DNA from: an uncultured Candidatus Saccharibacteria bacterium
Lineage (GTDB): Bacteria > Patescibacteriota > Minisyncoccia > Phycocordibacterales > DATDWN01
NCBI GenBank assembly: GCA_964603545.1
Contig: CAZRVD010000003.1
Location: forward strand, 4,945-68,944
Direction: 5' to 3'
Length of the DNA stretch: 64,000 nucleotides
The position numbers and the translations under genes were made by a program. Positions 16,595 to 58,564 of the stretch are shown piece after piece. Numbering within the stretch: the first letter of the stretch is position 1; every line of letters begins with the position of its first letter. The notes below the pieces were generated by a model. The model did not search any database. It was not told the origin of the DNA and worked only from the letters and a program-made list of their open reading frames with translations.

Positions 16595-16645
16595 GCCGGT
16601 CACACGCATTGCATGACCGGGCCTTGAACCCCCTCGACCGAAGCC
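16595..16645 (-). terminator. Intrinsic terminator of the collagen-like gene
   Basis: GGCCGGTCAcacgcattgcaTGACCGGGCC hairpin, followed on the minus strand by a T-rich run. Confidence 0.55.
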
Positions 16646-16652
16646 GAGGAAC

Positions 16653-17678
16653 TTACTGCGGGGTGTGCTCGTGTATCGCCACTGCACTCAAGAGGTCTTG
16701 AGTGAGTGGAATGAGCGGAATCTTACCGTAGGTCAGAAATTGGTCGAGTGGTACCCACCCGCTGATCCAGGCCTTCCGTGCCTTGACGATTGCCAGGACG
16801 GTGTCGAGGTTGACCACGCACATGTGGAACCGCGGATTCTCCCACTGATTCTTCTCCCTGTTCAGTGTGTACATGTTGCCGATGAAGTAAAACGAGGCGG
16901 TTGAGGCCGGCTCGATGTTCGTCCATCGGAACGGTGCGACTTCTCCTCCCCGAGTGAAGCCGATGACTTCCTTCTTGTTGAGGTTGAAGAGTACCATCAC
17001 GTCCGTTTCGGGCGTGAACATGTACAGCCACTCACAGGGGCCATCCGGAGCTGGCACGGTGCCTGTGACGGTATTCGCCGTCACCACGAGACCTGGAATC
17101 TCGAAGTCCGCATGAACCTGCTTGAGGCGTTCACACATCGCGATCGTTCCCGGAGGGCCTGCCGGACCTTGCGGACCAGTTGCACCGGGAACGCCCTGTG
17201 GACCCATGGGGCCAGCCGGTCCGGGAGGTCCCGGAGGGCCGGGTTCACCATTGACCTGGTTCAGAAACCAGATCACGTGCCCAACGTACGCTCCAGCTTT
17301 AAGCTGGGTCACGCCGTTGTTGAACACCGATTTGGTGATCACGTCAACTCCATTCACCTTTTCGATAGTGTAGACCCATGCGTCGACCAGTCCCGGTGAC
17401 ACCTGCTTGACGCTGATGTTGTGAAGAGCTCCGCCCACCACGTGGACGACCTTGCACTGCCCGATTCCGAGACGTGCCGTTGTCAGCACTCCGAGGGACT
17501 CAATGCGGTAACCTGCGTAGACATTGCTACGCAGATCCTCGCAGATTTGAACGACCTCATATGTTGGCACCCCTGAAGCGTCCTCACCGACGGCTGGAAC
17601 GTTGGCCTGGGCACCTTCGGCCAACAAGTTCATGCCCAGAAAGATCGCGAGCCAGAGAACTGCCTTTATCACCTTCAT
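16653..17678 (-). CDS. Secreted collagen-like triple-helix-repeat protein (signal peptide + 11 G-X-Y triplets + C-terminal globular domain), G+C-rich foreign gene
   Basis: Start at [25 protein letters not shown], preceded by [41 protein letters not shown] run. Composition is visibly G+C-rich versus flanks. Confidence 0.7.
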
Positions 17679-17753
17679 CACTTTCTTTCTCCCTTGCCAA
17701 CTTAATGGCTTTTTGCACTGCCGAAAATGGCAACACAAATCTGTTCTGTGCGC

Positions 17754-17782
17754 ACCGTAGCACCTTTCACAATTTTTGTCAA
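17754..17782 (-). promoter_or_regulatory. sigma70-like promoter of the collagen-like gene (TTGACA -17- TACGGT)
   Basis: On the minus strand: TTGACAaaaattgtgaaaggtgcTACGGT. SD AAGGGAG lies upstream of the ATG. Confidence 0.5.
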
Positions 17783-17794
17783 GAGGTACTCCTA

Positions 17795-18058
17795 CTACAT
17801 CAAACTCTTTAAATCTGACTCATATTTTTTAACAACATTCATTGTGGCTGTCATTTGGTCCAAACCTTTTTTCATTTCTTCCTGTACCTCAAGTCCAATT
17901 TTTTCAAAAAGCTGTGGATTTTTCTCTAACATACTAAAAATCTTTTCTTGTTCGGCCTGCGGAACACCTTTCATTTTTGAAGCCAGCATTTTTTTTATAA
18001 AAAAATTTTTTATTGACATAGGGCTCATAATATCAACAAATAAACTAGTCGTCCACAT
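17795..18058 (-). CDS. Hypothetical small protein (87 aa), native composition
   Basis: ORF only. It may be a remnant or C-terminal fragment adjacent to the foreign insertion. Confidence 0.25.
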
Positions 18059-18079
18059 AAGTTATGTTATGATATTTAT

Positions 18080-18874
18080 ATGTCCTGGAAAACAACGATT
18101 ATATTCTTCACTCTGTCAGTTGGTGGCCTTATCGGAATGATGACTTACTATAATCTAGATTTTTCTCTCCTTACTTCCCTTTCCTTTTATGAAAGTCTAG
18201 CAAATCCTTCTATTAGAATTGTAAAAGTGCAAGAGGGTCTCCGAAAAGAAGAAATAGCGGAAGTAGTGGGAACGAAACTTAGTTGGAGTGAGAAGGAGAA
18301 GACAAACTTTATAAATGCCCACCTAGCTCTAAACAGTGACAACTTGGAAGGAAAATACTTTCCAAAAACTTATATGTTAGACAAGGACGAGGACCCGATG
18401 GGAGTAACCGCCCTAATGCTAAAACAATTTTCTAAAGAAACTTCGACAATAAAAAAACAAAAAACAATGCAGGTGGTAAACCAGGACACTGCGGTAATTA
18501 TTGCATCAATCATTCAAAGAGAAGCTGCGGGTAAAAGAGATATGAAGTTAATCTCTGGGATTATTTGGAATAGACTTTGGAAAGGTATGAAACTCCAGAT
18601 GGATGCTACGCTACAATATGCAAAAGGTAGTGAGGAAGAAGGTTGGTGGATGAGAGTGGAATCCGCAGATAAGAAAATAGATTCTCCATATAATACTTAC
18701 ATAGAAGAAGGTCTCCCTCCATCTGCCATAGCAAATCCGGGGCTAGCCGCACTAGACGCTGCTTACAATCCACAAAAAACATCTTGCTTGTTTTATCTAC
18801 ACGACAAAAAAAGGAATATTCATTGCGCCAAGACATACGAGGAGCATAAGAGAAATATAAAGAGATATTTATAA
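18080..18874 (+). CDS. Second MltG/YceG-family endolytic transglycosylase paralog
   Basis: C-terminal DSPYNTYIEEGLPPSAIANPG; N-terminal TM. Confidence 0.75.
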   Translation: MSWKTTIIFFTLSVGGLIGMMTYYNLDFSLLTSLSFYESLANPSIRIVKVQEGLRKEEIAEVVGTKLSWSEKEKTNFINAHLALNSDNLEGKYFPKTYMLDKDEDPMGVTALMLKQFSKETSTIKKQKTMQVVNQDTAVIIASIIQREAAGKRDMKLISGIIWNRLWKGMKLQMDATLQYAKGSEEEGWWMRVESADKKIDSPYNTYIEEGLPPSAIANPGLAALDAAYNPQKTSCLFYLHDKKRNIHCAKTYEEHKRNIKRYL

Positions 18875-18993
18875 TAGTTGCTAGTAACTAGTTGTTAATT
18901 GCCAGTATTAATTTCTAGTTAGCAACCAAAAAACCCACAAAGTGAGTCTTTTGATTGCTACAACCTAAAACCTATCACCTAACCACTATTTTA

Positions 18994-19939: not shown

Positions 19940-20434
19940 ATACCACCAAAAGTGGATTTTGGGAATGGTTATCCACACATCTGGTGCTAACTGTATAGAC
20001 GCTTTGGCACGGTGAATATTACATAAACAACAAACCGGGCGCTTTTGGGCGACCGGTTGCAGGTTTACTGCGGGAGACCAGGAAAAATCCCCGCAGTCAT
20101 AGACGTCTTGCTCGAGGCAAGAATCGTCTGAATAGTATCAAAGAACGCCAGAAGGGTTCGTTCGATACCAGAGAAAATCTCTGGGGTAAGGAACTTAATC
20201 GTGATAATTAGCATTCCAAACCCAACAGTTCGTAGTATTTTCATACTTTTGTTGTAGAGGGAGAGACCTAAGTTACTGTTCCGACAAACAGTAACCTGAT
20301 ATTGCTAATTACCAGATTGCCCCCCTCATCCACGATGACCAATAAATTGATCAGAATGGAAGAAAAGAGGTTCCGATTTATCCGTACGCCAGCTTGCCAG
20401 CGTTTTAGGATTGTTTAATTATCAAATAACTTAC
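19940..20434 (-). ncRNA. Candidate ~500-nt structured non-coding RNA of unknown class, promoter-to-terminator unit
   Basis: No ORF of 60 aa or more on either strand across ~500 nt. Extended -10 TGGTATAAT on the minus strand at 20441-20449. Terminator-like hairpin CCAAAAgtggatTTTTGG at 19946-19962 followed by a T-run. Many strong internal hairpins (GTTACTGTTtgtcggAACAGTAAC, CTGCGGG...CCCGCAG, CTTGCctcgaGCAAG). G+C above flanks. Confidence 0.35.
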
Positions 20435-20473
20435 GCCCGCATTATACCACACATTCAATGAAAAAAGCAATGC

Positions 20474-21364: not shown

Positions 21365-21402
21365 AATCACCGACAAAACAAAGCCACGTCGATGCGTGGC
21401 TT
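21365..21402 (-). terminator. Intrinsic terminator of the 21443-21679 foreign gene
   Basis: AAGCCACGtcgatgCGTGGCTT hairpin followed by a T-rich run on the minus strand. Confidence 0.5.
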
Positions 21403-21442
21403 AGATTTCCAAGGGAACCAGTCTTGCCAGTCGTGCCAGGGT

Positions 21443-21679
21443 CTAGACCTGCCGACGACACGGGTCGCCGGAGCAGATGTTTACAAACTTGCATCTGCTA
21501 CAGTCCAGATTTGGGTCTGAAAACCCACCAACTCCATCCCGATTCTCCGTCATTGCGATCGTGCGCCTGTTGGCATCATTGGAGAACATTACTGCCTCTG
21601 ATGATGACATGCCCACCATGGCAAGAACCGAGAACTGCTGTGCGATAGCCTCTCTTATCTGACGTGACTTGAATGCCAT
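21443..21679 (-). CDS. Small G+C-rich foreign protein (~78 aa) with a C-terminal 4-Cys cluster
   Basis: Start chosen at MAFKSRQ because GGGGAGGG SD lies 9 nt upstream. C-terminus CSRCKFVNICSGDPC. Has its own promoter (TTGACA -17- TAGAAT at 21710-21738) and terminator. Confidence 0.4.
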   Translation of the reverse strand: MAFKSRQIREAIAQQFSVLAMVGMSSSEAVMFSNDANRRTIAMTENRDGVGGFSDPNLDCSRCKFVNICSGDPCRRQV

Positions 21680-21733
21680 AACCCTGACCCTCCCCATACA
21701 TCCTTTTTTATTCTATTCCTCCTGTTTAATCTG

Positions 21734-22642
21734 TCAATTTTTTTTAAAAAAAGTTTTGTTTATGTCAAAGTTAAAAATTTTATCTCCCACAATAAAACAT
21801 ATGCGCTGAAGTGGTTTGTAGTTGGAAATAAATTCCGTTTCTTTTATTTTTCCATCCGCATAAATAATTTCATAATTAATTTTTGCTGTATAACCTATTT
21901 GTGGAGTATTTATACATTCGCTTTGACCTTCTTCAAGCTCAGGAATCCATATGTATTTGGTTGGCAAAATATTTTTTATATTTGTTATCTCTGCTTCTGA
22001 AGTACTAGCAACTCTACCATCTTTTGTTCCATATATTTCAAAAATGGCATTTAAATTTTCTGTCCTACCTTTTATCATTATGGGATTCGCTGTGTCGTTT
22101 ACAAATTTAAAGTCTGGGCCAGGGTCAGAATAAGTTGCGTCCAACCCCACATCATACAAGGACACGGTGAAACTATGATTCGCTCGCTCTGTTACAGGTA
22201 GAGCCGAAGCCATTGCCGTCATAAAAAGTAGAGTTGAAACTTGGCAAAGCCCCCCACCAATACCTTTTGTTACTTCTCCATTCAAAAAAATCCTTTCTAC
22301 ACTCCAGCCATCTTCCACAGTTGTTGTACCTAGAGCTTTTTTAAAAGAGAATTCTTCTCCAGGAGCAAGTTTTATACCGTTCATTCTGCTAATACCAAGT
22401 TCTATATTTTTATGTCGTCCCTCTGTTCCTCCGGCATAAGATAGTTGTGCTCGACCCAGTAGGTCTTTACCGATTTCTTCTTCTTTTATGGGGGTTACCG
22501 CAACTTCTGGAATTTTTGTTTCGGTTTTTATTTCTATATTTTGTGGTTTGGGTTTACCAAGAAGTCCAAAAAGAAAAAGGATGAGAAGACAAAAAACCAA
22601 AAAGTATGTGACTGATTTCGTACTATGGTTTTTCGGGTCCAT
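21734..22642 (-). CDS. VanW-family protein
   Basis: GGGLCQVSTLLF motif, N-terminal TM. Confidence 0.7.
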   Translation of the reverse strand: MDPKNHSTKSVTYFLVFCLLILFLFGLLGKPKPQNIEIKTETKIPEVAVTPIKEEEIGKDLLGRAQLSYAGGTEGRHKNIELGISRMNGIKLAPGEEFSFKKALGTTTVEDGWSVERIFLNGEVTKGIGGGLCQVSTLLFMTAMASALPVTERANHSFTVSLYDVGLDATYSDPGPDFKFVNDTANPIMIKGRTENLNAIFEIYGTKDGRVASTSEAEITNIKNILPTKYIWIPELEEGQSECINTPQIGYTAKINYEIIYADGKIKETEFISNYKPLQRICFIVGDKIFNFDINKTFFKKN

Positions 22643-24949: not shown

Positions 24950-25092
24950 AACTACATTTTACCATTATTAACTTGAAATGGCTTAATTAAGAGAATTGGG
25001 TGTTTGAGGGATTAAATTTATATAAAGACGAAGACCGCTGGGCGAACCATGCGGTCTTAACGAGTGAGAGTCTGAACTAGGAGAGACTCAGG

Positions 25093-25350
25093 ATGGCCGT
25101 TGCGAACGCATACGAAGTTCGCAACGTTGTCTCGTCATCCATTGTTCCGTTTGCCATTGCATCTGCAGTTTCGCTGCCGAGACATGCACGGAAAAAACCA
25201 GGCTCCGCCGCCTTCTCTCTCAACCAAGCGACAATCTCGCTTTTAACCATCGGCTTCTCCTCCTCTGATTATCAGAATATCATGTTAATCGGATTTGTCA
25301 AGTTTGTGGACCATAGGACTCTTCCTTCATTCTGTTTCGCCGTCGCTTAA
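25093..25350 (+). CDS. Doubtful small ORF in a G+C-rich, hairpin-dense region; may be non-coding
   Basis: AGGAGA sits 10 nt upstream of the ATG. But the reading frame contains perfect palindromes (GTTGCGAACgcatacgaaGTTCGCAAC). Confidence 0.2.
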   Translation: MAVANAYEVRNVVSSSIVPFAIASAVSLPRHARKKPGSAAFSLNQATISLLTIGFSSSDYQNIMLIGFVKFVDHRTLPSFCFAVA

Positions 25351-25481
25351 CAGAATTCAGGACGCAGATTCACGACAAGCGCTACTGCGCTCGTAAACCG
25401 TGAATCTGTTCGAGTCCTGACGTAAAGCTTTGCTTTACTTCGGGTCCACAACGAAAAAAGCGCCTCTCGGCGTTTTCGTTG

Positions 25482-25554
25482 TGGACCCGACAGGACTCGA
25501 ACCTGCCACCCCATCATTGCAAATGATGTGCTCTACCAGATGAGCTACGGGCCC
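25482..25554 (-). tRNA. tRNA-Ala (anticodon UGC)
   Basis: Reverse complement GGGCCCGTAGCTCATCTGGTAGAGCACATCATTTGCAATGATGGGGTGGCAGGTTCGAGTCCTGTCGGGTCCA. Cloverleaf folds, anticodon loop TTTGCAA, G3:U70 Ala identity pair, 73 nt, CCA not encoded. Confidence 0.85.
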
Positions 25555-25761
25555 ATTATGCCTAAGTAAATTAAACTGCTTTAATTTACTTTGGACTTAT
25601 GGGAGCCAGAGACATGTTTCGCTACCAAGCTAAACAGTCGAGGCGGGGTCGCGGAATTCTGCGAACGACGGTGAGCAAAATATCTGTGACCTAATGAAGA
25701 TTACCAAAATTATTTACAAAATTCAAGCGGGCACTTCGCGTGCCCGCTCGTGTGAGCTGTA

Positions 25762-26019
25762 CTACTTCTTTCGCTTGAGCTCGGCCAGTTCGTGTGAGGT
25801 CTCGTTCAACTGCGCACGAAGAGAAGCGATGAGCTTCACGGCTTCACTATTCTCCTTAAGGAGTCTTTTCAGCTCATCTTTGTGCTCGTTCCGCTTTGCA
25901 AAGTACTCACGAGCCTGGAAATTCCTGTTGTTCACTAAGGTTTGAACCTGTCGTTTGGTACGAGACTTGCGGTCTTTACGCGGTGGAAGTTCCTCGAGTC
26001 TTTTTCTGGTTTTGCCCAT
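25762..26019 (-). CDS. Small basic coiled-coil protein (85 aa), G+C-rich foreign
   Basis: GGAGGA SD 9 nt upstream. K/R/E-rich heptad-like sequence. GCGGGCACttcgCGTGCCCGC terminator at 25728-25755. Confidence 0.45.
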   Translation of the reverse strand: MGKTRKRLEELPPRKDRKSRTKRQVQTLVNNRNFQAREYFAKRNEHKDELKRLLKENSEAVKLIASLRAQLNETSHELAELKRKK

Positions 26020-26113
26020 CAGCGTTATCCTCCGTCTGGTAGATAGCTTATTGGTTTAAGACAGACTAGTCAACTTTGGTTAAAATTTCTTTCATTTACA
26101 AATAACAATAATA

Positions 26114-26584
26114 ATGCTTTTATATTATGCGGAAATGGAGGTGGGTGTGGAAATCGATGCGACGATACTGATGACCAGGCAAGTTCGACTGGAAGCCAGG
26201 ATGAGACAAAATGACATCACCAGGCAAACCATCAACAAGGTTCGAAGGGTAATGGAGGAAAGGGGCTACCGTCCCGTGACTGGAGCAGACCTGATTCCCA
26301 ACCAGGAAGCTGTCCAGATTGAAATTAGCACCTGGTTCGAAGAGGGTCGACTCATGGGTGAATTTGGGGTTGCCCCAGGGACTACCATCGTGACACTCAG
26401 TGACCCACCGGTCAGAAAAATAACTGCTCCCGGGAAGTCGACCAACATGGTCTTCTTTCGTTGCGTGAAGCCAGAAAGCTCAATCGAAATGAGCATGCCG
26501 GCATACGAATTCATTCAGGAACAGTTCCAAACACGAGACCCCCAGGGTCACACCAACCTCGCCAGATACTTCGTCAAGATATGA
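26114..26584 (+). CDS. Hypothetical protein (up to 156 aa), G+C-rich foreign
   Basis: GGAGG SD before an in-frame GTG at 26147 suggests a slightly shorter product. No recognisable motif. Confidence 0.4.
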   Translation: MLLYYAEMEVGVEIDATILMTRQVRLEARMRQNDITRQTINKVRRVMEERGYRPVTGADLIPNQEAVQIEISTWFEEGRLMGEFGVAPGTTIVTLSDPPVRKITAPGKSTNMVFFRCVKPESSIEMSMPAYEFIQEQFQTRDPQGHTNLARYFVKI

Positions 26585-26663
26585 AGGAGGGCGATGAAAG
26601 CAAAACGAGCTACGACAAGGAGGAGCTACGGCACTCTCCGGTCGGGCTCTTTCTTTTATAAAA

Positions 26664-28922: not shown

Positions 28923-28957
28923 TTTATCATCATCATTATACACGGAGGGAAGGTGAA

Positions 28958-40251: not shown

Positions 40252-40252
40252 G

Positions 40253-52030: not shown

Positions 52031-53392
52031 TTAGTTTTTAGCGTTAGTTATTGTACAAGTAATAGCTTCGCCTTCGTTTAGAACTATAGGAGTACTGGTA
52101 CTAGCTGGACATCCCACTCCAGTAATAGAGACAAAATGATAACCCACTCTACCTGTTTCGTTTATAAGATGTGGTGTGTTGGAAGTAACAGCAATAGATG
52201 CGCCCGTTGGAACTCCTACACCATCAACTCTTAGACCAAACAATGTGTTTGAGGCAAGTGGTGGAGTACCGGTTACGACTTTTATTAGAGTAATGTGTGC
52301 TGGAAGCTCTGTGTTTGTTATAACACAAGACTTCAGCTCATTTGCTCCAACATTTATATTCCCTTCAAAGTCACAATCCCCACTAAATGTAGCTTGATAT
52401 CCGTTTGAGCCAGCTTCACTTATGTTGTACAAACCTACTGGAACAGTTGTTGTTGCTCCAGAAGAAACTTCTGTAGAAACAAAACCATCATCAATAAAGT
52501 AATGGAAGTCTGTCACGGTATTGTTTCCGCCATTATTGTTTACAACAACTTTTGTTACAACAATTTTACCCATCTGTTGCACTACTGGTGGGACACATAG
52601 GAAATTTGGATTGTGCCTAGACTGAACCGCAGAAAACTTTACATCCGCAGTCAAACTATCTGTTTGAGTTGAATTGTTTAAGTTTGAGCCATCACAGACA
52701 ATACCTCCACTTGAGTTAGCTGGGGTTCTAGGTGAGGTAGAACCTAGTCCGTCTTGCACAAGTGCAGATTGACTAAGATTCCCAAAACACCATGCTTTGC
52801 CTATGTACAAAGTCTGTTCTCCAGGAACTGGCCCAGGAACTCCTGTCCATATGTTTGTACTGGAATCTGCTAGAGCCACAGTTGTTGAACCATTTAAACC
52901 AAGTGCCCCTATAGGTCCTTGAGAAATAACGTCCTCGTCATTCTCTAGAACATTATCCCCATCATCAGCCCACCATACGAAATTCACATTACTAGCAAGT
53001 TCGCCGTTTCCGGGACCATCACTAGCATCAACTTCTGCTTCCGGTTCATTTATTCCGTTATCATCATTTGAAGTCAGCTTAACGTTGGCACAAAGATATG
53101 AATCATTGTTGTCTACATGAAGAGAGATCGTGTCTTCTCCTAGATCTCCAGGTTTAACATCTGGAAAATCAAAAAACTTTTGAATAGTTAAGTCCGCCAT
53201 TTCCCATGTCGTACTAGCATTCAAAAATCCGTTGTAGTAGCTGTGATTGTCTATCATTAGGTCTATAGCTCCAGCAGTAAAAGTGTTTCCACTCGACAGT
53301 TCTCTGTCAGAGAAAAACGCACCTGTTCCACCTAGAACTAAGGCCGAACCAACAAACAAGATTAGAGCTGAACTTAGTAATATTCTTTTCAT
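52031..53392 (-). CDS. TasA/camelysin-like secreted protein with SipW-cognate signal peptide, paralog 1 (453 aa)
   Basis: MKRILLSSALILFVGSALVLGGTGAFFSDRELSSGNTFTAGAIDL. Confidence 0.7.
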   Translation of the reverse strand: MKRILLSSALILFVGSALVLGGTGAFFSDRELSSGNTFTAGAIDLMIDNHSYYNGFLNASTTWEMADLTIQKFFDFPDVKPGDLGEDTISLHVDNNDSYLCANVKLTSNDDNGINEPEAEVDASDGPGNGELASNVNFVWWADDGDNVLENDEDVISQGPIGALGLNGSTTVALADSSTNIWTGVPGPVPGEQTLYIGKAWCFGNLSQSALVQDGLGSTSPRTPANSSGGIVCDGSNLNNSTQTDSLTADVKFSAVQSRHNPNFLCVPPVVQQMGKIVVTKVVVNNNGGNNTVTDFHYFIDDGFVSTEVSSGATTTVPVGLYNISEAGSNGYQATFSGDCDFEGNINVGANELKSCVITNTELPAHITLIKVVTGTPPLASNTLFGLRVDGVGVPTGASIAVTSNTPHLINETGRVGYHFVSITGVGCPASTSTPIVLNEGEAITCTITNAKN

Positions 53393-53407
53393 TCCGTTTT
53401 CTGTTTA

Positions 53408-53443
53408 CCCCCGAACTAATTTTAGTAAATTCAGTTCTGGGGG
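53408..53443. repeat. Hairpin element CCCCCGAACTaattttagtaaattcAGTTCTGGGGG, copy 1
   Basis: Near-identical copies at 54905-54940 and 56793-56830; split copy at 56453-56471 / 56731-56749. Confidence 0.8.
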
Positions 53444-53459
53444 TGGATAATAATTTTAC

Positions 53460-54896
53460 CTAGTTAAGTGGACAATTTTCTGGAATAACAAACTGACCAA
53501 CCAAAGTTGAGTAAGCTGTGTTTGTTCCAGGATAAGCCCCGTTAAACATCGATATGACTTGTGCTTGGCTGTAAGGGAAGTCCAAACTGCCTGCGTTGAG
53601 TAGTGCTACCACCGTCTCTCTTCCAAGCTGATTTAATCCCCCACCACCCAGTTGCAAAACTTGTAACAAAGTTTTACCAGGAAAAGCGTTGTCGAAGACA
53701 GAAGAGTATAGTTGGTTCGGTGAGTAACCAGACCAGCTGTCAAAATGTTGACTTGCCTTCCAGTAACCATGTGAACAGTACTGGTTATTTTCTTCCTCAA
53801 CTTTAAGTTTATTTACAACTATAAATGTTTCTGTGGGATCATTAACAATAACTCCTAGACCCCCCGCGCCCGAAACATGTTCCCAGCCTTCCTGTAACAC
53901 CTCACTTATCTCATGAGTACCATAAGACACGCCAGTGAAAGCAACACAGCCATTTTGCAGAGTTACTCCAGAGTAATCCTCAATATTACCCGGTAGACCA
54001 TCATTTAAATTCAAGGTCCAACCAGAAAGAGGTTTACCTGTTTCATCTGTTTTACACAAAGTTACAGTTGATTTGTCTTCTTCTTCGTCATTTCCACAAA
54101 TAAACCCATCGTTACCCCTAGATTGAATCACAGAGAAAGTGACATCGGCTTTTACGCCGTCACTTTGAACTATGTTTCCTATTTCTTCACCTTCGCATTT
54201 AAAACCAGTTCCTCTTACTAGAGGTCCGTTGTTACCTGTTTTACCTAAACCATCTTGAGTTACTGGATAGTCCTGCATATCGCCAAAGCACCAGGCTTTA
54301 CCAATATACCTGACAGAATTTCCAATAAGCGGGTCATCACCTCCCCAAATGTTTCCATTTGAGTCAGCGATAGCCCAATTTTCTCCATTCCAAATATCTT
54401 TTACCAAACCTTTTTTGAATATTTTTTCTCCTATCTCATAAACATTATCTCCGTCGTCTGCCCAGAATTTGAAATACAATTTGTCTTGTAACTCACCACT
54501 GTTTTCTCCGGTGGTTACGTCCACAAGACTTTCTGGTTCATTCTGACCATTCTCTGGAGTGGCAGTAAGCAGTATATTCATACACGCCCAAGCATTGTTA
54601 TTGTTTACGTGAAGTGAAATAGTATCCTCTCCAATATCTCCTGGCTTTATATCAAGAAAGTTAAAGAAAAACTTACCCGCAAGCGGAGAAAGTTCCCAAG
54701 AAGTGGATGTGCTGTAAACCAGCTTGCCCCACTCGTTTGTTATATAACTTTCGTTGTCGATTTTTAGGTCGATAACCCCTGTGGCAAAAGTATTACCTGT
54801 GGACTTTTCTGTATCGGAGAGGTATGCTCCTGTACCAGTGGCCAGGATTGCTCCAGCAAAGATTATGGAAGTTATACTTAATAGTATTTTTTTCAT
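53460..54896 (-). CDS. TasA/camelysin-like secreted protein, paralog 2 (479 aa from MKKILLSITS)
   Basis: MKKILLSITSIIFAGAILATGTGAYLSDTEKSTGNTFATGVIDL. The longer ORF to 55007 reads through the upstream hairpin element. Confidence 0.7.
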   Translation of the reverse strand: MKKILLSITSIIFAGAILATGTGAYLSDTEKSTGNTFATGVIDLKIDNESYITNEWGKLVYSTSTSWELSPLAGKFFFNFLDIKPGDIGEDTISLHVNNNNAWACMNILLTATPENGQNEPESLVDVTTGENSGELQDKLYFKFWADDGDNVYEIGEKIFKKGLVKDIWNGENWAIADSNGNIWGGDDPLIGNSVRYIGKAWCFGDMQDYPVTQDGLGKTGNNGPLVRGTGFKCEGEEIGNIVQSDGVKADVTFSVIQSRGNDGFICGNDEEEDKSTVTLCKTDETGKPLSGWTLNLNDGLPGNIEDYSGVTLQNGCVAFTGVSYGTHEISEVLQEGWEHVSGAGGLGVIVNDPTETFIVVNKLKVEEENNQYCSHGYWKASQHFDSWSGYSPNQLYSSVFDNAFPGKTLLQVLQLGGGGLNQLGRETVVALLNAGSLDFPYSQAQVISMFNGAYPGTNTAYSTLVGQFVIPENCPLN

Positions 54897-54904
54897 TTTT
54901 TCTT

Positions 54905-54940
54905 GCCCCCGAACTAATTTTAATAAATTCAGTTCTGGGG
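54905..54940. repeat. Hairpin element, copy 2
   Basis: CCCCCGAACTAATTTTAATAAATTCAGTTCTGGGGG. Confidence 0.8.
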
Positions 54941-55051
54941 GTAACTTTCTAACCCACTTTCTTTGTTTGGTTGCGAAGCACGACTCTAGAGAGTTATGCC
55001 CCGCCACCTACAAAGATTAATGAGTTAGGAAAATTTTAGTTTAGAGTTCTA

Positions 55052-56434
55052 CTAATCAAATGTATTTGTAACAGTACATGTGATTGTATCCCCTGGGGTC
55101 AAAACAACTGATCCTGGGAAAGATGCTGGGCAAGAAACCCCCAAGAAGGATGTTCCTGTAACTGATGTTTGAGAATAACCAGCCACCAAAACTTCTTCGT
55201 CAAGTTCATGTGAAGCATTTGCGCTAACACCATTAGAAGATCCTGAAGTTACAATTCCACTATCGATTGATAGATCAAAGTCGTCTGGAGCAGATTCTCC
55301 CCCAACAACATTTTTAATTAAAGTAACTACTGGTTGAATATCATCATTAGTTATAGTACAGCTAGCAGCTCCCCCGGCTGGAACATTCACAGTTCCGTCT
55401 GATGCACAATCTCCACTAAATGTAGCAGAGTAACCAAACAGACCAGATTCACTCACTGTATGAAGACCAGCACTTGTTGTTGTCGCTACACCAGATGAAA
55501 TAGACATTGAATCAACAAAGAGTGGAAAGCCACCAACTACAGCTGTTCCACCATTATCATTTGTTACAACCTTAGTAACTGTAAGAGTTCCTGTTGTTGG
55601 CTCACCTTGTCTTTGTACACACTGGAAGTTTCCATTGTTTCTAGACTGAACAGCTCTGAAAGCAACGTTTGCTGTCAAACTGTCTGTTTGTGCAGTATTG
55701 CCAACTTGTGAACCATCACAAGTAAATCCTGTTCCAACTGTAAGAGGACTTCGTCCTACATCTGCGCCATTGTCTTGAGCAACTGGGTTTGGCGTAATTG
55801 TTCCAAAGCACCATGCTTTACCAACGTACCTTACAGATGCTCCTGGTACTGGACCACCTTGTAATGTCCAAATGTTATAAACAGAGTCAGCTAGTGTAAC
55901 AGTTGTTGTTGCACCTATTGCAAGAGCTCCTAAAGGACCGCCTTGTAGCAGGTTCTCCCCTGTTTCCAAAACGTTGTCTCCATCGTCAGCCCACCAAGCA
56001 AAGTTTACTTGCTGTGCTAGTTCACCTCCGTTTGGATCATTTGTTATATCTCCATCTTCTGCTTCTGGCTCAACAAGAGTGTTTTCATTGTTAGATGTAA
56101 GTGTTACATCAGCACAAAGGTATGAATCGTTGTTGTCCACGTGTAGAGAGATAGTGTCTTCGCCAATGTCTCCAGGTTTTAAGTCACTGAAGTCAAAAAA
56201 CTTCTCAATTGTTAAATCTCTCATTGTCCAAGTTGTCCAAGGACTAGCTACAAGCTGTCCTGTAGATGTACTTGTAACATAACTCGTATTATCTATCTGC
56301 AAATCAATAGCTCCAGCAGCCAAAACATTGCCTACTGAAGTTTCACTATCACTGAAAAAAGCTCCTGTTGCTGTTATAGCCATCGCCGCAACAAAAACAA
56401 CCACTCCTAAACTCATTAATATTTTTCTATTCAT
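55052..56434 (-). CDS. TasA/camelysin-like secreted protein, paralog 3 (460 aa)
   Basis: MNRKILMSLGVVVFVAAMAITATGAFFSDSETSVGNVLAAGAIDL. Confidence 0.7.
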   Translation of the reverse strand: MNRKILMSLGVVVFVAAMAITATGAFFSDSETSVGNVLAAGAIDLQIDNTSYVTSTSTGQLVASPWTTWTMRDLTIEKFFDFSDLKPGDIGEDTISLHVDNNDSYLCADVTLTSNNENTLVEPEAEDGDITNDPNGGELAQQVNFAWWADDGDNVLETGENLLQGGPLGALAIGATTTVTLADSVYNIWTLQGGPVPGASVRYVGKAWCFGTITPNPVAQDNGADVGRSPLTVGTGFTCDGSQVGNTAQTDSLTANVAFRAVQSRNNGNFQCVQRQGEPTTGTLTVTKVVTNDNGGTAVVGGFPLFVDSMSISSGVATTTSAGLHTVSESGLFGYSATFSGDCASDGTVNVPAGGAASCTITNDDIQPVVTLIKNVVGGESAPDDFDLSIDSGIVTSGSSNGVSANASHELDEEVLVAGYSQTSVTGTSFLGVSCPASFPGSVVLTPGDTITCTVTNTFD

Positions 56435-56452
56435 AATTAATTTTATTTTTTA

Positions 56453-56749
56453 CCCCCGAACTAATTAGGACTTAAGACTCTTACTTATCCTCCTTTTCAA
56501 ACCACCTAAAGACCTACCGTGCTCCTTGAGCATTTTCTCTCTATGTGTGGCGTCTTCCCTTAGTTTATATGCTTCGTAATATATCAACTCAAATGGCTTT
56601 CGTAATTTGGTTGATGTACTCTTACCCGAATTATGTTCTTCTATTCTCCTCTTGAGATTATTTGTGTATCCGGTGTAAAGATTTCCATCTTTCTCACTTT
56701 TTAAAATATACACATAGAACATAATTCAAAGTCCTAATTAGTTCGGGGG
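56453..56749 (-). mobile_element. GIY-YIG nuclease gene inserted into the loop of a hairpin element, bounded by 19-bp inverted repeats CCCCCGAACTAATTAGGAC
   Basis: Left arm 56453-56471, right arm (reverse complement) 56731-56749. The interior 56465-56722 encodes the GIY-YIG protein. Confidence 0.5.
56465..56722 (-). CDS. Small GIY-YIG domain nuclease (UPF0213/YhbQ-like, 85 aa)
   Basis: MFYVYILKSEKDGNLYTGYTNNLKRRIEEHNSGKS. Confidence 0.8.
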   Translation of the reverse strand: MFYVYILKSEKDGNLYTGYTNNLKRRIEEHNSGKSTSTKLRKPFELIYYEAYKLREDATHREKMLKEHGRSLGGLKRRISKSLKS

Positions 56750-56792
56750 TTGATTAATTTTTATAATACTTTTTATAATTTTGTTTACTTTA

Positions 56793-56830
56793 CCCCCGAA
56801 CTAAATTTTAATAAATTTCAGTTCAGGGGG
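56793..56830. repeat. Hairpin element, copy 3 (intact, upstream of the TasA-like array)
   Basis: CCCCCGAACTAAATTTTAATAAATTTCAGTTCAGGGGG. Confidence 0.75.
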
Positions 56831-57257
56831 TCGACCTTCTCTTCTCAAACTAAGCCCTTGGAATTCGCAAATAATTACAAAAACAAAAAGAGCTGTCTCT
56901 GTTGTAATATTAAAATTACTGCAGAGATAGCTCTTTTGCGTGTTCCAAGTGGTTTGTTTCAAGAAAAGTAACTAACATCTTTTCTAACTTACTTAAGAAC
57001 TAATTTATATCTTGATCTAAACCAAGATAAAGTTCATCGTATCACGCTGTTTTTTTATCAAAATAATAAATACTAAAAAAGTGTATAACTTGTGGAGAAC
57101 AAGTGTAAAACTCTACAAATATGAGTGAAAAAACGTGAAAATATAGTAAAATTTGACAAAATTTTAAAAAATTGAAAAACAAAAAATACCTTGACCAAAT
57201 TGAGATTTACAAAAAACTACACCATACTTGTGTAGCTTTTTGTAACCTATTGAGTAT

Positions 57258-57280
57258 TGTGCAACATCGGATGTTGCACA
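57258..57280. repeat. 23-bp palindrome TGTGCAACATCGGATGTTGCACA, copy b (8 nt past the stop of the 57289-57969 gene)
   Basis: Exact match to copies a and c. Confidence 0.8.
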
Positions 57281-57288
57281 GTAGAAAA

Positions 57289-57969
57289 CTATTGTGACAA
57301 AGTTGTGAAATTTCTTTCTGTACTCGTTGCACTGTTACCTCTTTCGTCAGTAATTTTTATCATGTAGTAGTATGTCGTGCTTGTGGAAAGGCCGGGAAGA
57401 TTTACAGAGTGTGTAAAGCTTAAATTATTTACAAAAAAATTTGCGGGTGAGGTAGAGGCTACTGGGGTGGTGTTGCTATACCAAAATTCTGACTTTACAT
57501 TTTTGTTTGCTGTCCAGAAAACATATCCTCGTGTTGGAGAATTGCTAGATGACTCAATTACAAACAACTGTGGTGTCACTATATAGTTGGTGGCCATTGC
57601 AAATAAGCTGTTTTTAGAAATTTTGTTCAGAAGTTCTCTAGTTTTTGGACCAACAATTCCGACTACCTCTAGGCCATTTTCCCCTTGTAGCTTCTTTATT
57701 GCCCGCTCTGTCAAAGTGCCAAAATAGCCCGTAATAAGGCCTTCTGGATATATGTTTGGCACCTTTGAAAGCTGTGACTGTAGAACCTTAACAGCATCCC
57801 CGCGTGAACCAAGCCGCAGACTAGGTGTAGGATTTGGCGGAGTATCCACCAAAGCCACCGTAGCCCCAGCCGTCTGCACTACAAAAAGCCCAGCCAAAAC
57901 CAAACCAAATATTGAAAAAGTTTTTTGTCTCATACTAAAATTATACCAATTTTCCACCAGAATAATCAA
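57289..57969 (-). CDS. Secreted protein with peptidoglycan-binding (PG_binding_1-like) domain and Ig/FN3-like C-terminal domain
   Basis: LRLGSRGDAVKVLQSQL...GYFGTLTERAIKKLQGENGL. Probable start at MRQKTFSIFGLVLAGLFVV, around 57933. Confidence 0.55.
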   Translation of the reverse strand: MIILVENWYNFSMRQKTFSIFGLVLAGLFVVQTAGATVALVDTPPNPTPSLRLGSRGDAVKVLQSQLSKVPNIYPEGLITGYFGTLTERAIKKLQGENGLEVVGIVGPKTRELLNKISKNSLFAMATNYIVTPQLFVIESSSNSPTRGYVFWTANKNVKSEFWYSNTTPVASTSPANFFVNNLSFTHSVNLPGLSTSTTYYYMIKITDERGNSATSTERNFTTLSQ

Positions 57970-58031
57970 TTTTAGACAAGACGATGGGGGCGCATCCCCC
58001 GAAGGAAATGCGCCCGTAGTACACGTCAGAT

Positions 58032-58439
58032 CTAGCCGACCTGGAAGGTCCTCATCAGGGTTTCCGAGGTCGCCGCCTCGAGGTCGCTTGCGAGAATCCT
58101 CGCCAGCATCGGATGCTCTCCGCTGACTGCGGTTCCACAGCTCTTCGGGATGACCCCGTCCACTGCCTCGTTCCGGTGTGGCATGACTGAGTACATGTAG
58201 AACCGAACCTGCGGATTGACCTGCTTTACCAGGCGGGCCAACTGCGAGCCCTCGATATGGCTGTCGAAGACCTGACCAGAGACCACGAACGCCGGAGAGC
58301 CATCCATCACAGCGTCCAGAACGGCTTCTGGAATACTGGTGAAGAGGATCTCCCGGGATCTCGCAGGATCGATCTTGGCAACCCCCTCCTTGATTCCGAG
58401 CAGATTCTCGCGATGACGCTGAGCCACGATGATCTTCAT
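58032..58439 (-). CDS. G+C-rich foreign hypothetical protein (136 aa)
   Basis: AAGGGAGGG SD before MKIIVAQ. GGGCGCATcccccgaaggaaATGCGCCC hairpin downstream at 57988-58015. No confident family assignment. Confidence 0.4.
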   Translation of the reverse strand: MKIIVAQRHRENLLGIKEGVAKIDPARSREILFTSIPEAVLDAVMDGSPAFVVSGQVFDSHIEGSQLARLVKQVNPQVRFYMYSVMPHRNEAVDGVIPKSCGTAVSGEHPMLARILASDLEAATSETLMRTFQVG

Positions 58440-58564
58440 ATGCCCTCCCTTGGGTAGAAACAACGAACAGAAATCCTGAACCTTATGACATTATACACCC
58501 GTTTACTATTATTGTCAAATACAATTTTAGTACTAAAACAACCTTACTTATACGACCAAAATTA

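Follow-up and report, generated by a model that had tools for sequence, protein, structure and literature searches.

Small G+C-rich candidate transcription units between AT-rich, largely leaderless genes of a Paceibacteria-type chromosome

Why does the AT-rich chromosome of an ultra-small groundwater bacterium carry short, scattered G+C-rich segments? In the window, which here means the whole analysed stretch of 64,000 nucleotides, the original prediction listed twelve such segments and counted at least 11 mini-cassettes, which it took for recent, repeated uptake from G+C-rich donors. Eleven of the twelve segments were indeed G+C outliers, ten of them above every equal-length background window (z 2.6 to 9.2); the GC of segment 32050-32435 was reached by 1 of 2044 background windows, and that of the weakest segment, 19940-20450 (z 2.1), by 27 of 1979. 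GC content is 0.518 within the listed segments and 0.362 elsewhere in the window, and of the 16 intergenic gaps that are 150 bp or longer, 12 contain a G+C-rich unit (15% of the window). The GC3 of the unit ORFs is 0.47-0.75, as compared with 0.28 ± 0.05 in host genes (n = 49). The codon shift extends to Lys, Gln, Leu and Arg codons and to amino-acid composition, C-ending codons are favoured for Tyr, His, Phe and Asp, and third positions (A.18, T.19, C.32, G.31) are without strand asymmetry.

The G+C-rich stretch of a unit begins only at the predicted transcription start and ends with the terminator. Averaged over 12 units, GC is 0.32 upstream, 0.29 in the promoter, 0.55 in the 5'UTR, 0.52 in the CDS, 0.64 in the 3'UTR plus terminator and 0.28 downstream, the promoter and spacer being as AT-rich as the host (0.29). 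Similarly, in related AT-rich loci, at least 48% GC follows 23 of 126 strong promoter-like sites versus 4.6% of background windows (p = 2e-8), and the step comes directly after the -10. A rise confined to the predicted transcript counts against the donor origin that had been proposed. The units and other elements, with promoters, transcription starts and terminators as predicted from the sequence, are as follows.

16596-17782, minus: unit 1; -35 TTGACA at 17782-17777, 5'UTR of ~70 nt, SD GGGAG, terminator 16620-16596; GC 0.57, GC3 0.68
17678-16653, minus: unit 1 ORF, 341 aa, signal peptide and collagen-like G-X-Y repeats
19960-20260, minus: unit 2, the weakest; run of four hairpins at 20030-20178, z -6.3 on the minus strand
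20244-20065, minus: possible unit 2 ORF, 59 aa; terminator-like hairpin at ~20033-20057
21381-21737, minus: unit 3; TTGACA-16-TAGAAT, SD GGGGAGGG, terminator 21402-21381
21679-21443, minus: unit 3 ORF, 78 aa, C-terminal Cys motif
25024-25301, minus: unit 4a; TTGACA-16-TATTCT, SD GAGGAGGAG, ORF 25250-25083 of 55 aa, terminator hairpin 25058-25031
25481-25554, minus: tRNA-Ala(UGC), inside the 25.0-26.66 kb G+C-rich cluster
25724-26073, minus: unit 4c; TTGACT-17-TAAGCT, SD GGAGGA, ORF 26019-25762 of 85 aa, basic, terminator 25750-25724
26114-26660, plus: unit 4d; weak promoter, ORF 26135-26584 of 149 aa
28901-29137, plus: unit 5a; TTGACG/TTGACT promoter, SD GGAGGGAAGG, ORF 28957-29091 of 44 aa with one TM helix, terminator 29112-29137
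29152-29349, plus: unit 5b; TTGACT-17-TAGCAT, SD AAGGAG, ORF 29204-29314 of 36 aa with one TM helix, terminator 29326-29349
32077-32425, plus: unit 6; TTGACT-16-TAATGT, SD GGGGGTGA, ORF 32130-32381 of 83 aa, G+C-rich terminator hairpin; identical in independent contig L002
34567-34993, minus: unit 7; -35 TTGACT, poor -10, SD GGAGGGG, GTG start, two terminator hairpins
34943-34623, minus: unit 7 ORF, 106 aa, MerR/excisionase-type HTH
36318-36575, minus: unit 8, non-coding RNA-like; TTGACT-17-TATGCT, structured RNA of ~220 nt (z -3.3), strong terminator
36286-36311 and 36586-36611, no strand assigned: two copies of palindrome TTTCACAGCGATATATCGCTGTGAAA flanking unit 8
40222-40613, minus: unit 9; TTGACA-17-CATCAT, SD GAGGTG, terminator 40252-40222 with a 14-bp stem
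40567-40253, minus: unit 9 ORF, 104 aa, Cys-rich
42040-43094, plus: unit 10; TTGACT-17-TATAAT (with TG), SD GGGAG, terminator 43067-43094; GC 0.62, GC3 0.75
upstream of 42148, plus: unit 10 leader, 73 nt, conserved hairpin
42148-43047, plus: unit 10 ORF, 299 aa, carrying a signal peptide, a conserved N-terminal domain, a Pro-rich region and a small domain at the C-terminus
43205-43415, plus: sRNA-like unit; TTGACA-16-CAAAAT, structured RNA 43270-43415 (z -5.7), terminator hairpin at the end
43816-44568, plus: unit 11; TTGACT-18-TATAAT (with TG), SD GAGGAGGT, terminator hairpin 44541-44568
43892-44542, plus: unit 11 ORF, 216 aa, hydrophobic, taken as a multi-pass membrane protein
44590-44732, no strand assigned: hairpin element, 143 nt, with a perfect terminal stem of 20 bp; z -7.3 on one strand, -7.8 on the other
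57985-58518, minus: unit 12; TTGACA-17-TATAAT (with TG), SD AAGGGAGGG, terminal hairpin 58015-57988; GC 0.59, GC3 0.74
58439-58032, minus: unit 12 ORF, 135 aa, receiver/CheY-like fold

As originally described, the cargo comprises small secreted, membrane or Cys-rich proteins and RNAs. In the 299-aa protein, a long predicted helix between the N-terminal domain and the Pro-rich region is taken as a TM segment, and the leader hairpin of its family is conserved with compensatory changes, which are also found in the 5' hairpin of the unit 8 homologue in related locus L003. The same locus holds homologues of units 4c (57% identical) and 4d (39% identical). No acceptor Asp was seen in the receiver-like fold of unit 12. 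The sRNA-like unit is only moderately high in G+C, and the 143-nt hairpin element occurs once in the window. Rfam gave no matches among the units besides the tRNA, which we rejected as a cassette since it is a native structural RNA. Further copies of palindrome TTTCACAGCGATATATCGCTGTGAAA lie at 63100-63125 and 63560-63585, and a TrpR-family regulator, whose gene lies at 63132-63557, probably uses the palindrome as its operator.

We then compared the expression signals of units and host genes. The predicted make-up of the units is a sigma-70-type -35/-10 promoter, an SD leader, one small ORF or structured RNA and a G+C-rich hairpin terminator, and the claim that most segments combine promoter, SD and terminator was borne out at the unit edges. 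Promoter-like sites there match 11 of 12 positions at 21737 (minus), 42040 and 43816 (both plus), and 9-10 of 12 at 25301 (minus), 28901/28908 and 29152 (both plus), 36575 and 40613 (both minus). The best terminator-like hairpins likewise fall at unit edges (16620-16596, 21402-21381, 25750-25724, 29112-29137, 29326-29349, 34585-34567, 40252-40222 and 43067-43094). The exceptions are 19940-20450, where unit 2 has no clear promoter or SD, 34560-34960 with its poor -10, 26114-26584 with a weak promoter, and 57985-58460, whose terminal hairpin has no clear T run. The total of promoter-like sites in the scanned regions showed no excess over shuffles (54 versus 48; 48 versus 42). SD-like motifs are likelier by chance in G+C-rich leaders.

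An SD motif precedes 12 of 13 unit ORFs (the scan found none for unit 4d) but only 2 of 47 host genes (Fisher p = 8e-10); automatic calling across relatives gave a weaker contrast, with SDs at 13% of outlier ORFs versus 3% of host ORFs. In 18 of 42 host genes, the start codon follows a -10-like hexamer at a distance of exactly 6-7 nt, a leaderless layout. The host genes, including ribosomal-protein genes, read as AT-rich and largely leaderless without SD, and the absence of such signals at native genes, correctly noted before, has its reason in this leaderlessness, which had been missed. In addition, 6 of 15 units versus 4 of 47 host genes lie on the plus strand (p = 0.009), the units occurring in both orientations. 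Composition and regulatory style both set the units apart from the host as discrete, expression-ready modules.

In related Paceibacteria, the same inter-operon gaps are empty (44-72 bp), filled, or hold unrelated units, and one gap is occupied by different units in two genomes whose flanks are 89-94% identical. Across 44 related loci we found 105 GC3-outlier ORFs, of which 92 are singletons, and further units lie on the same contig outside the window. One unit family appears in different genomic contexts, and the unit 3 homologue in L088 occupies a different gap. AT-rich accessory genes are likewise gained and lost in such gaps. By these sequence comparisons, the units are accessory, being gained, lost and replaced among related genomes, with some very long-lived at one site.

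On balance we favour, with confidence that is evenly poised, the view that the segments form a class of accessory transcription units, autonomous and lineage-wide, in a Paceibacteria-type (Parcubacteria) chromosome, and that active maintenance, probably acting on the RNA, preserves their composition. The units are alike in architecture to phage morons, but differ by lying in a cellular chromosome. Their coding regions fold more stably than those of host genes (p = 2e-4), at -0.24 to -0.45 versus -0.15 to -0.28 kcal/mol per nt. Compared with synonymous-codon shuffles, five of ten fall lower by about 2 sd or more (z -2.0 to -5.2) and four show no structure excess (z -0.8 to +0.6); set against host genes as a group, the units' excess over shuffles was not significant (one-sided p = 0.07).

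The idea that the units came in recently and repeatedly from G+C-rich donors (one or more, possibly the episymbiont's host) and have not yet ameliorated agrees with the strong composition and codon-usage contrast, the presence, absence and replacement polymorphism among relatives, the two orientations and the ORFan-like cargo. However, word-indexed searches of 5.8 billion proteins found no G+C-rich donor, and all homologues with examined genomic context lie in a Patescibacteria-type, often syntenic context, except for one 56% identical family member in a 50-55% GC contig, which does fit a donor. The host-like promoter and spacer, the GC step at the predicted transcription start and the independence of unit GC3 from host GC3 also count against a donor; units picked by criteria other than GC show GC3 of ~0.55-0.58 at host GC3 of both 0.26 and 0.45.

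The age of the G+C-richness was assessed in two unit families, the collagen-like and the 299-aa, which are the two largest units. Their syntenic orthologues (for the collagen-like unit, in L169 and L170) are 31-45% identical, and the flank proteins 65-89%. At conserved four-fold codons, the third bases of most pairs agree no more often than by chance, or little more, so that synonymous sites are close to saturated: identity is 0.26-0.38 versus a chance level of 0.24-0.32 between the window and relatives for the 299-aa family, and 0.24 versus 0.25 for the collagen-like pair window-L170. The collagen-like pair window-L169 (0.42 versus 0.25) and the L084 pairs (0.31-0.37 versus 0.23-0.25) fall short of full saturation. 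Four-fold GC is nevertheless 0.61-0.77 in the 299-aa family, the L084 lineage apart, and 0.47-0.67 in the collagen-like family, as against 0.16-0.28 in the adjoining DEAD and YchF host genes of the same genomes. Since near-saturated sites are still mostly at 0.5-0.76 GC, well above host GC, the G+C-richness appears to be maintained rather than decaying, which weakens the donor idea for units 1 and 10; the L083/L084 orthologue, down to GC3 0.40, indicates that maintenance is not universal. The original prediction is only partly borne out: the units do vary in presence and are replaced among relatives, but the analysis turned up no donor, phage or recombinase behind its recent uptake from G+C-rich sources, which we regard as unlikely.

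We think it distinctly improbable that the units are recombination hot spots, often exchanged for example by natural transformation under diversifying selection as at surface-antigen loci, and kept G+C-rich by GC-biased gene conversion or by a steady influx of alleles from G+C-richer Patescibacteria. The surface and envelope cargo, the symmetrical G+C shift over all codon positions and UTRs, the fast protein evolution and high turnover, and the unit GC3 of ~0.55-0.6 whatever the host are consistent with it. However, to our knowledge, the GC3 shift from 0.28 to 0.75 far exceeds reported effects of bacterial gene conversion, conversion tracts need not begin at a transcription start or end at a terminator, and cassette identities roughly follow the flank-identity ranking, which fits vertical descent.

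Tuning of the units for expression in a G+C-rich partner cell, via DNA or RNA transfer, would account for expression signals that divide the units completely from the core genes, for G+C-rich codons and canonical signals (sigma-70, SD, terminator) that the organism's own genes lack, and for lasting G+C-rich codon usage with fast-evolving secreted and membrane cargo. Yet no transfer machinery or border sequences were found beside the units, the sRNAs, pseudo-receiver and HTH protein make sense within the cell, and simpler explanations are available, which leaves this reading very improbable. Slightly less credible still are ordinary native genes, G+C-rich through high expression (translational codon bias) or as structural RNA genes. 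The strong promoters and SDs, the favoured C-ending codons, the tRNA-Ala in one segment and the several RNA-like units point that way, but on the same contig GC3 is 0.16-0.35, and a clear SD is missing, in the genes for S13, S11, S4, L17, L13, S9, RpoA, IF-1, GrpE and DnaK. The G+C-richness of the units is therefore not a consequence of high expression, which largely refutes this reading; moreover, the UTRs are also G+C-rich, the shift reaches amino acids, only the tRNA matches Rfam, and relatives have the same gaps without the units.

Integron-type or transposon-type cassettes, or assembly chimeras, are scarcely believable, even with a hairpin at the end of each unit and a 32-nt direct repeat around one: the hairpins are perfect G+C stems with T runs after most, each unit has its own promoter, and the units are dispersed rather than arrayed by an integrase. 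As the original prediction had stated for integrases and transposases, neither the units nor the genes beside them yielded a recombinase; terminal inverted repeats, target-site duplications and a mechanism of insertion were likewise not found. The 32-nt repeat bracketing unit 8, the sole long direct repeat found at any junction, was rejected as a target-site duplication because it is palindromic and probably regulatory, with five copies, two of them flanking the TrpR-family gene. A chimera was rejected since independent assemblies hold the same sequence: an ENA contig shows just 1 mismatch along 21 kb, two units are matched at 100% identity by an independent Logan contig, and an NCBI MAG contains identical proteins.

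Under the favoured account of autonomous, maintained accessory units, G+C-richness would be an actively maintained trait of the transcribed segment and not the waning trace of G+C-rich donor DNA. The likeliest cause would be selection on RNA for more stable, structured, SD-dependent mRNAs amid AU-rich leaderless core mRNAs. New units would most likely spread among Patescibacteria via DNA uptake and recombination into inter-operon gaps, without a recombinase of their own. Because the products are mostly fast-evolving envelope proteins, a cell-surface role directed at a partner cell or a phage would be plausible. The two traced families stay G+C-rich at evolutionary distances where borrowed DNA should have ameliorated to host composition.

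The twelve G+C-rich segments picked out in the original prediction are real by GC content, by comparison with equal-length background windows and by GC3. GC is 0.518 within these segments and 0.362 elsewhere in the window; ten of them lie above all equal-length background windows, 32050-32435 is matched by 1 of 2044 such windows, and 19940-20450 is the sole marginal outlier. The units, as we call the autonomous G+C-rich mini-genes and RNAs between operons, together make up 15% of the window and are present in 12 of its 16 intergenic gaps of at least 150 bp. Their ORFs have a GC3 of 0.47-0.75, as against 0.28 ± 0.05 in 49 host genes, and use CTC and CTG instead of TTA for Leu, AAG instead of AAA for Lys, and C-ending codons for 71-85% of Tyr, His, Phe and Asp; Ala, Arg and Pro are increased in the encoded proteins, and Lys and Ile decreased. 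By a hand count, 6 of 15 units are encoded on the plus strand, versus 4 of 47 host genes (p 0.009).

The claim that each unit combines a promoter, an SD and a terminator holds for most units. In consensus scans, the total of promoter-like sites was not above that of shuffles, but the top promoter-like matches and the top terminator-like hairpins sit at unit edges. When the units were read one by one, a TTGAC(A/T) -35 box was assigned in 12 ORF-bearing units, with the -10 spaced 16-18 nt from it in 11 of these; the -10 of unit 7, an HTH protein unit, is poor, and unit 4d (26114..26660, plus strand) has a weak promoter only. An SD precedes 12 of 13 unit ORFs and 2 of 47 host genes, and every ORF-bearing unit terminates in a G+C-rich hairpin.

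The DNA of the window comes from the chromosome of an uncultured Patescibacteria (CPR) bacterium, and its long ORFs are housekeeping genes (LeuRS, UvrA, UvrB, UvrC, Tgt, XseA, a DEAD-box helicase and an ABC ATPase, plus Ddl and XseB). An assembly chimera, which would have undone the prediction, is excluded: the ENA assembly carries the same sequence with 1 mismatch in 21,212 bp, an independent Logan assembly is 100% identical over 6,366 bp spanning two units, and three cargo proteins are 100% identical to NCBI proteins of 'Parcubacteria group bacterium Gr01-1014_46' (taxid 2017187). The closest genomes by Tgt (at most 84% identity) are Paceibacteria or Zambryskibacteria-type MAGs with the same gene order as the window; relatives above 84% TGT identity, sought in genome and metagenome collections for exact junction mapping, were not found. 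As a separate observation, the leucyl-tRNA synthetase (10881-13736, minus strand) has a NUDIX-domain match at residues 414-508 (28 bits, cut-off 21.1), between the editing and catalytic parts, an insertion that to our knowledge is unusual.

The native AT-rich genes were said to lack the signals of the units. Indeed, besides their paucity of SDs, 18 of 42 host genes have a -10-like hexamer ending exactly 6-7 nt 5' of the start codon, other offsets scoring 0-4; examples in the window are the genes at 8394-9662, 26664-27665, 46758-47789 and 48248-48799. This placement is the arrangement of leaderless mRNAs, and the core genes thus appear to be leaderless. The pattern extends to ribosomal-protein genes just past the window end on the same contig (L171) and to relatives. 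When related AT-rich loci were surveyed automatically, 23% of host ORFs versus 3% of outlier ORFs had a -10-like hexamer just before the start, and 3% versus 13%, respectively, had an SD. A 16S 3' end, sought for its anti-SD, was absent from the loci examined. The genome thus holds two gene classes: judged by its signals, the core class is AT-rich, SD-free and often leaderless, and the other is composed of leadered, SD-dependent, G+C-rich single-gene units.

The cargo was expected to be mostly small secreted, membrane or Cys-rich proteins and RNAs, and the units read bear this out. Unit 1 encodes a secreted 341-aa protein with collagen-like repeats. The 299-aa protein of unit 10 has a signal peptide, a conserved N-terminal domain, a long predicted helix that we take to be a transmembrane segment, a Pro-rich region and a small C-terminal domain. 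The hydrophobic 216-aa protein of unit 11, taken to be a multi-pass membrane protein, belongs to a family of 211 representative clusters, ten of which were looked up and are unnamed metagenomic sequences. Further cargo comprises one-helix peptides of 44 and 36 aa from two units, a Cys-rich 104-aa protein, a 78-aa protein with a C-terminal Cys motif, a MerR/excisionase-type HTH protein, and a 135-aa protein with a receiver-like fold (pLDDT 85), best matched by the receiver domains of RcsB and CheY, whose acceptor Asp is apparently missing, as none is seen in the alignment. The structured RNAs and elements are as follows.

36318-36545, minus strand, structured RNA (z -3.3), whose homologue in the relative L003 keeps the 5' hairpin via compensatory changes
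43270-43415, plus strand, structured RNA (z -5.7)
20030-20178, minus strand, structured RNA (z -6.3)
44590-44732, both strands, structured element of 143 nt with a perfect 20-bp closing stem (z about -7.5)

The last of these, single-copy in the window, has the 216-aa unit on one side and the ABC ATPase gene on the other. A search of Rfam 15 gave only tRNA-Ala matches at gathering and E-value thresholds, and 36318-36575, 43205-43415, 44590-44732 and 20030-20178 had no match even at E up to 5. The tRNA-Ala, which lies within one unit cluster, is a native RNA gene. Its 3' end belongs to a 16-bp inverted repeat, GGGTCCACAACGAAAA / TTTTCGTTGTGGACCC, around a short G+C hairpin (25441-25495), so the acceptor 3' strand could pair with its own trailer. 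In the UvrC|Ddl gap of two relatives, the unit encodes a protein of about 210 aa with a GPPGCGK-type motif; loci of this protein are listed here.

L003, 12396-13034, GPPGCGK-motif protein
L004, 12884-13516, GPPGCGK-motif protein
L115, 14876-15544, GPPGCGK-motif protein

The motif reads as a putative P-loop of the adenylate-kinase type, and unit cargo would thus not be confined to envelope proteins.

The units are accessory. Matched across relatives by anchoring on host proteins, a given gap can be empty, filled or differently filled. The FKBP|TGT gap measures 44-72 bp in L004, L087, L005 and L009, where the tgt promoter directly follows the host terminator; it contains a unit and is 398-975 bp long in the window itself and in L003, L006, L007, L091, L022 and L011. 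A unit with its own promoter and terminator occupies this gap in at least eight other genomes. Its contents are mutually unrelated, namely an sRNA, small membrane proteins, a 216-aa membrane protein and a heptamer-led transcript. In the last case (L088, 7155-7737), about 20 tandem TTTTCTG heptamers immediately follow a TTGACT...TATAAT promoter and lead into a G+C-rich structured part and a terminator. The TGT|UvrB, UvrC|Ddl and DEAD|XseA gaps show the same empty-or-filled behaviour. The window and L003 share 93% identity in UvrA, yet the adjoining units differ in sequence and orientation; in L006 versus L007 the flanks are 94% and 89% identical, and no alignment is possible from just before the -35 to just past the terminator. 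Among other near-identical locus pairs, only one shows a unit replacement and another has AT-rich indels, and AT-rich small genes likewise come and go in such gaps. The 44 related loci contain 105 GC3-outlier ORFs, 92 of them singletons. Two families also recur in other contexts: the 78-aa family adjoins ddl in L088, and the 135-aa family in L168 lies beside a tRNA and dnaJ-dnaK with its promoter-SD-terminator layout unchanged. Past the end of the window, the contig carries further units in the rpsI|grpE gap and 5' of dnaK.

As to how the units arrive, no recombinase was found in or beside them, which agrees with the predicted lack of integrase and transposase, and unit ends have no target duplications, terminal inverted repeats or shared boundary repeat. 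Insertions fall between a host terminator and the following promoter; selection alone would favour these sites, since only insulated insertions there keep the operons intact. Gain by DNA uptake followed by recombination would be a reasonable inference for this phylum. A search of the junctions for short direct repeats had been proposed, and one long repeat came up: a perfect 32-nt repeat (36282/36582) brackets the sRNA unit 8. It was dropped as a target duplication because its core, TTTCACAGCGATATATCGCTGTGAAA, is an operator-like palindrome with five copies, four in the window and one beyond.

36286-36311, TTTCACAGCGATATATCGCTGTGAAA palindrome, beside unit 8
36586-36611, TTTCACAGCGATATATCGCTGTGAAA palindrome, beside unit 8
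63100-63125, TTTCACAGCGATATATCGCTGTGAAA palindrome, beside a TrpR-family gene
63560-63585, TTTCACAGCGATATATCGCTGTGAAA palindrome, beside the same TrpR-family gene
L171, about 18,770, TTTCACAGCGATATATCGCTGTGAAA palindrome, beside the rpsI|grpE-gap unit

The TrpR-family gene bracketed by two of these copies (63132-63557, minus strand; Pfam PF01371, 34.8 bits, cut-off 27) and the sRNA-like unit upstream of tgt suggest that TTTCACAGCGATATATCGCTGTGAAA is probably the operator of a small regulon that includes some G+C-rich units. A second perfect palindrome, TGTGCAACATCGGATGTTGCACA, has three copies (28118-28140, 57258-57280 and 59618-59640), one within the uvrC reading frame and two intergenic, 2.36 kb apart. 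Three apparently paralogous genes of 453-515 aa (52031-56434), with high GC2 and a 35-nt stretch common to them at 89% identity, each have a conserved hairpin, CCCCCGAACT...AGTTCTGGGGG, downstream, in these regions.

53398-53444, CCCCCGAACT...AGTTCTGGGGG hairpin
54896-54942, CCCCCGAACT...AGTTCTGGGGG hairpin
56443-56466, CCCCCGAACT...AGTTCTGGGGG hairpin
56783-56831, CCCCCGAACT...AGTTCTGGGGG hairpin

The original prediction explained the units by repeated uptake from G+C-rich donors. Homologues of the 299-aa gene in the relatives L083-L086 (37-42% identity) lie beside the same DEAD-box helicase gene and share a recognisably conserved promoter, leader hairpin and terminator. The leader hairpin, GUUGGUC..CCCGA..GGGGUGAGAC, in which 2 of 11 pairs are compensatory across four genomes, may stabilise the 5' end or have a regulatory role.

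Window, 42072-42147, 299-aa leader hairpin
L086, 3928-4000, 299-aa leader hairpin
L085, 3921-4000, 299-aa leader hairpin
L084, 1578-1656, 299-aa leader hairpin

Homologues of the collagen-like gene (about 33% identity) occur between yceG and ychF in L169 and L170. The unit genes in those relatives are SD-led with a GC3 of 0.65-0.70, next to leaderless-looking neighbours with a GC3 of about 0.2. We compared orthologues for third-base identity at codons for the same amino acid from the same four-fold box, observed versus chance, and in most pairs identity was at or near chance, for units and host genes alike. For the units, the 299-aa pair of the window and L085 gave 0.26 versus 0.28 by chance and the collagen-like pair of the window and L170 gave 0.24 versus 0.25; for the host, DEAD-box helicase (window and L085) gave 0.34 versus 0.33 and YchF (window and L169) 0.35 versus 0.34. 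Pairs that retain signal are the collagen-like pair with L169 (0.42 versus 0.25), the helicase pair with L086 (0.52 versus 0.33) and the L084 pairs (0.31-0.37 versus 0.23-0.25). Near-chance identity indicates that synonymous sites are close to saturated, yet four-fold GC is 0.61-0.77 in the 299-aa family (L084 apart) and 0.47-0.67 in the collagen-like family, as against 0.16-0.28 in neighbouring host genes. One old acquisition with passive decay cannot yield this persistence, and recent uptake does not fit at least the two largest units. In the L083/L084 lineage, the 299-aa gene is down to a GC3 of 0.40 with all signals kept, which suggests that the maintaining force can weaken.

The search for donor taxonomy pointed the same way, as word-indexed searches of 5.8 billion proteins gave no G+C-rich donor. 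The homologue contexts examined are nearly all Patescibacteria-like; the exception is L167, a contig of 50-55% GC with a 56% identical homologue of the 135-aa receiver-like protein.

L167, 1-9600, array of small SD-led ORFs, several preceded by the motif GATGGAATAAT..TTTAACA..CAGGAGAT

L167 may be a mobile element or a G+C-richer relative drawing on the same cargo pool. A phage origin was rejected, with no INPHARED megablast match for 16-26 kb and only collagen-repeat and HTH matches in PHROGs; two proteins and two family alignments scanned against IMG/VR gave no match.

Furthermore, the compositional boundary does not coincide with that of an inserted module. Mean GC over 12 units is 0.32 in the 60 nt upstream, 0.29 in the promoter, 0.55 in the 5'UTR, 0.52 in the coding region (GC3 0.59), 0.64 in the 3'UTR plus terminator and 0.28 in the 60 nt downstream, the boundaries of five units being off by a few bases, which affects individual values more than these means. 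In related AT-rich loci, a GC of at least 48% follows 23 of 126 strong TTGAC-N16-18-TAnnnT sites, versus 4.6% of background windows (p 2e-8), and mean GC rises from about 0.3 to about 0.5 within about 20 nt past the -10. The step at the -10 and at the terminator indicates that the G+C-rich part is the predicted transcript, not the whole inserted module. We judge that promoter spacers of 29% GC would be unexpected in DNA from a donor of 55-60% GC; a property selected on the RNA would let untranscribed spacers drift to host composition, as observed. The foreign-island reading fails because of this boundary at the predicted transcription start and the persistence of the composition.

Selection on the transcript is our first-ranked candidate for the cause of the G+C-richness. 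Predicted folding per nucleotide is much more stable in unit coding regions than in host genes (p 2e-4), and 5 of 10 unit coding regions are about 2 sd or more better folded than synonymous-codon shuffles (z -2.0 to -5.2), although the folding excess over shuffles of units versus host genes as a group is not significant (p 0.07); RNA-level selection thus has some direct support. Ranked second, gBGC or allele replacement from a G+C-richer Patescibacteria pool would keep the units G+C-rich. Units called by signals alone, with GC ignored, have a GC3 of about 0.55-0.58 at a host GC3 of either 0.26 or 0.45 (small numbers), which suggests a common optimum or a common pool, not a fixed host offset. 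For polarised substitution counts no suitable trio was found, the family common to L003, L004 and L115 being only 24-51% identical. RNA-templated conversion and tuning of the units to a G+C-rich partner are both long shots. Strand-specific mutagenesis, whether DGR-like or transcription-coupled, is unlikely, as unit third positions are symmetrical between strands. High expression is ruled out by six ribosomal-protein genes, rpoA, infA, grpE and dnaK on the same contig, which have a GC3 of 0.16-0.35 and no clear SD.

There is also a broader proposal, which we regard as conceivable but rather unlikely: Paceibacteria would run two separate expression regimes, an AT-rich, leaderless, SD-free core and a mobile, fast-evolving pool of autonomous, leadered, SD-dependent units, the G+C of the latter being held by a dedicated, transcript-tied process. 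Candidates for this process would be RNA-stability selection, RNA-templated conversion and tuning to a G+C-rich partner cell. The underlying phenomenon is real and lineage-wide.

Among known systems, phage 'morons', reportedly described by Hendrix, Juhala and colleagues, come close. A moron is a single gene with its own sigma-70-type promoter and factor-independent terminator, inserted between two genes that adjoin each other in relatives; an accessory gene, frequently of unknown function, it differs from its neighbours in composition and has no recombinase of its own. The units likewise lie between genes adjacent in relatives, with atypical composition and, as read from the DNA, their own promoter and terminator. 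Three of the four defining features are thus present, but residence in a phage or prophage is not: the units belong to a cellular chromosome, where they separate housekeeping operons (uvrA/B/C, tgt, xseA/B, ddl, rpsI-grpE) whose synteny is conserved across Paceibacteria. They also differ in their density, in including sRNAs, in contrasting with the host in translation-initiation mode and in a composition that persists through saturating divergence. In the PeSL (promoter-early stem-loop) cassettes of T4-type phages, ORFan genes flanked by modules of terminator plus promoter are gained, lost or exchanged for others from one close relative to the next, at the edges of regulatory elements, and the PeSLs themselves are conserved composite repeats whose length suffices for homologous recombination (PMC2839356, PMC4122927). 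The replacement seen in L006 versus L007 is alike, but the units share no repeat beyond about 12 consensus promoter positions and reside in a bacterial chromosome, not a phage.

O-antigen and capsule loci are large, multi-gene, low-G+C loci at one or two sites, swapped by homologous recombination in conserved flanks. They resemble the units as accessory surface-related genes with long-lasting atypical composition and frequent replacement at a fixed site, whereas the units number dozens and are single-gene and high in G+C, each with its own transcription unit. Integron cassettes are promoterless, attC-bearing and arrayed next to intI/attI/Pc; the units are similarly small, mostly single-gene, odd in composition, hairpin-ended and hugely diverse in ORFans, but were rejected as such cassettes, since each has a promoter of its own and an ordinary terminator, they lie dispersed across 42 kb and beyond, and the ORFs scanned include no integrase. 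Their 3' hairpins read as perfect G+C stems, mostly with T runs, and look like intrinsic terminators. IS elements, MITEs and transposons were dismissed, as the units have no TIR/TSD at their ends and are unrelated to one another, and so were integrase-mediated genomic islands, since one cluster contains the tRNA-Ala but no integrase or att-like repeat. HGT in Patescibacteria has been surveyed (PMC12455944), and searches of the open-access literature gave no description of this dual architecture.

The failure of the foreign-island reading makes the finding more interesting than a list of foreign islands. Composition-based methods would label the units horizontally transferred islands, which in Patescibacteria may often be wrong; if the two-regime reading is true, composition marks a functional gene class, not foreign origin. 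Neighbouring genes of one genome appear to be at different stationary G+C (about 0.7 versus about 0.2 at four-fold sites), which bears on what sets bacterial G+C, be it mutation bias, biased gene conversion or selection. The split between a leaderless core and an SD-led accessory set could be a natural test of one ribosome pool serving two initiation modes. Finally, the units delimit the accessory genes, probably directed to the cell surface, of an uncultured episymbiont lineage, and reveal its insertion-tolerant places together with promoter, SD and terminator parts likely to work there, a parts list that is useful as some Patescibacteria are now transformable.
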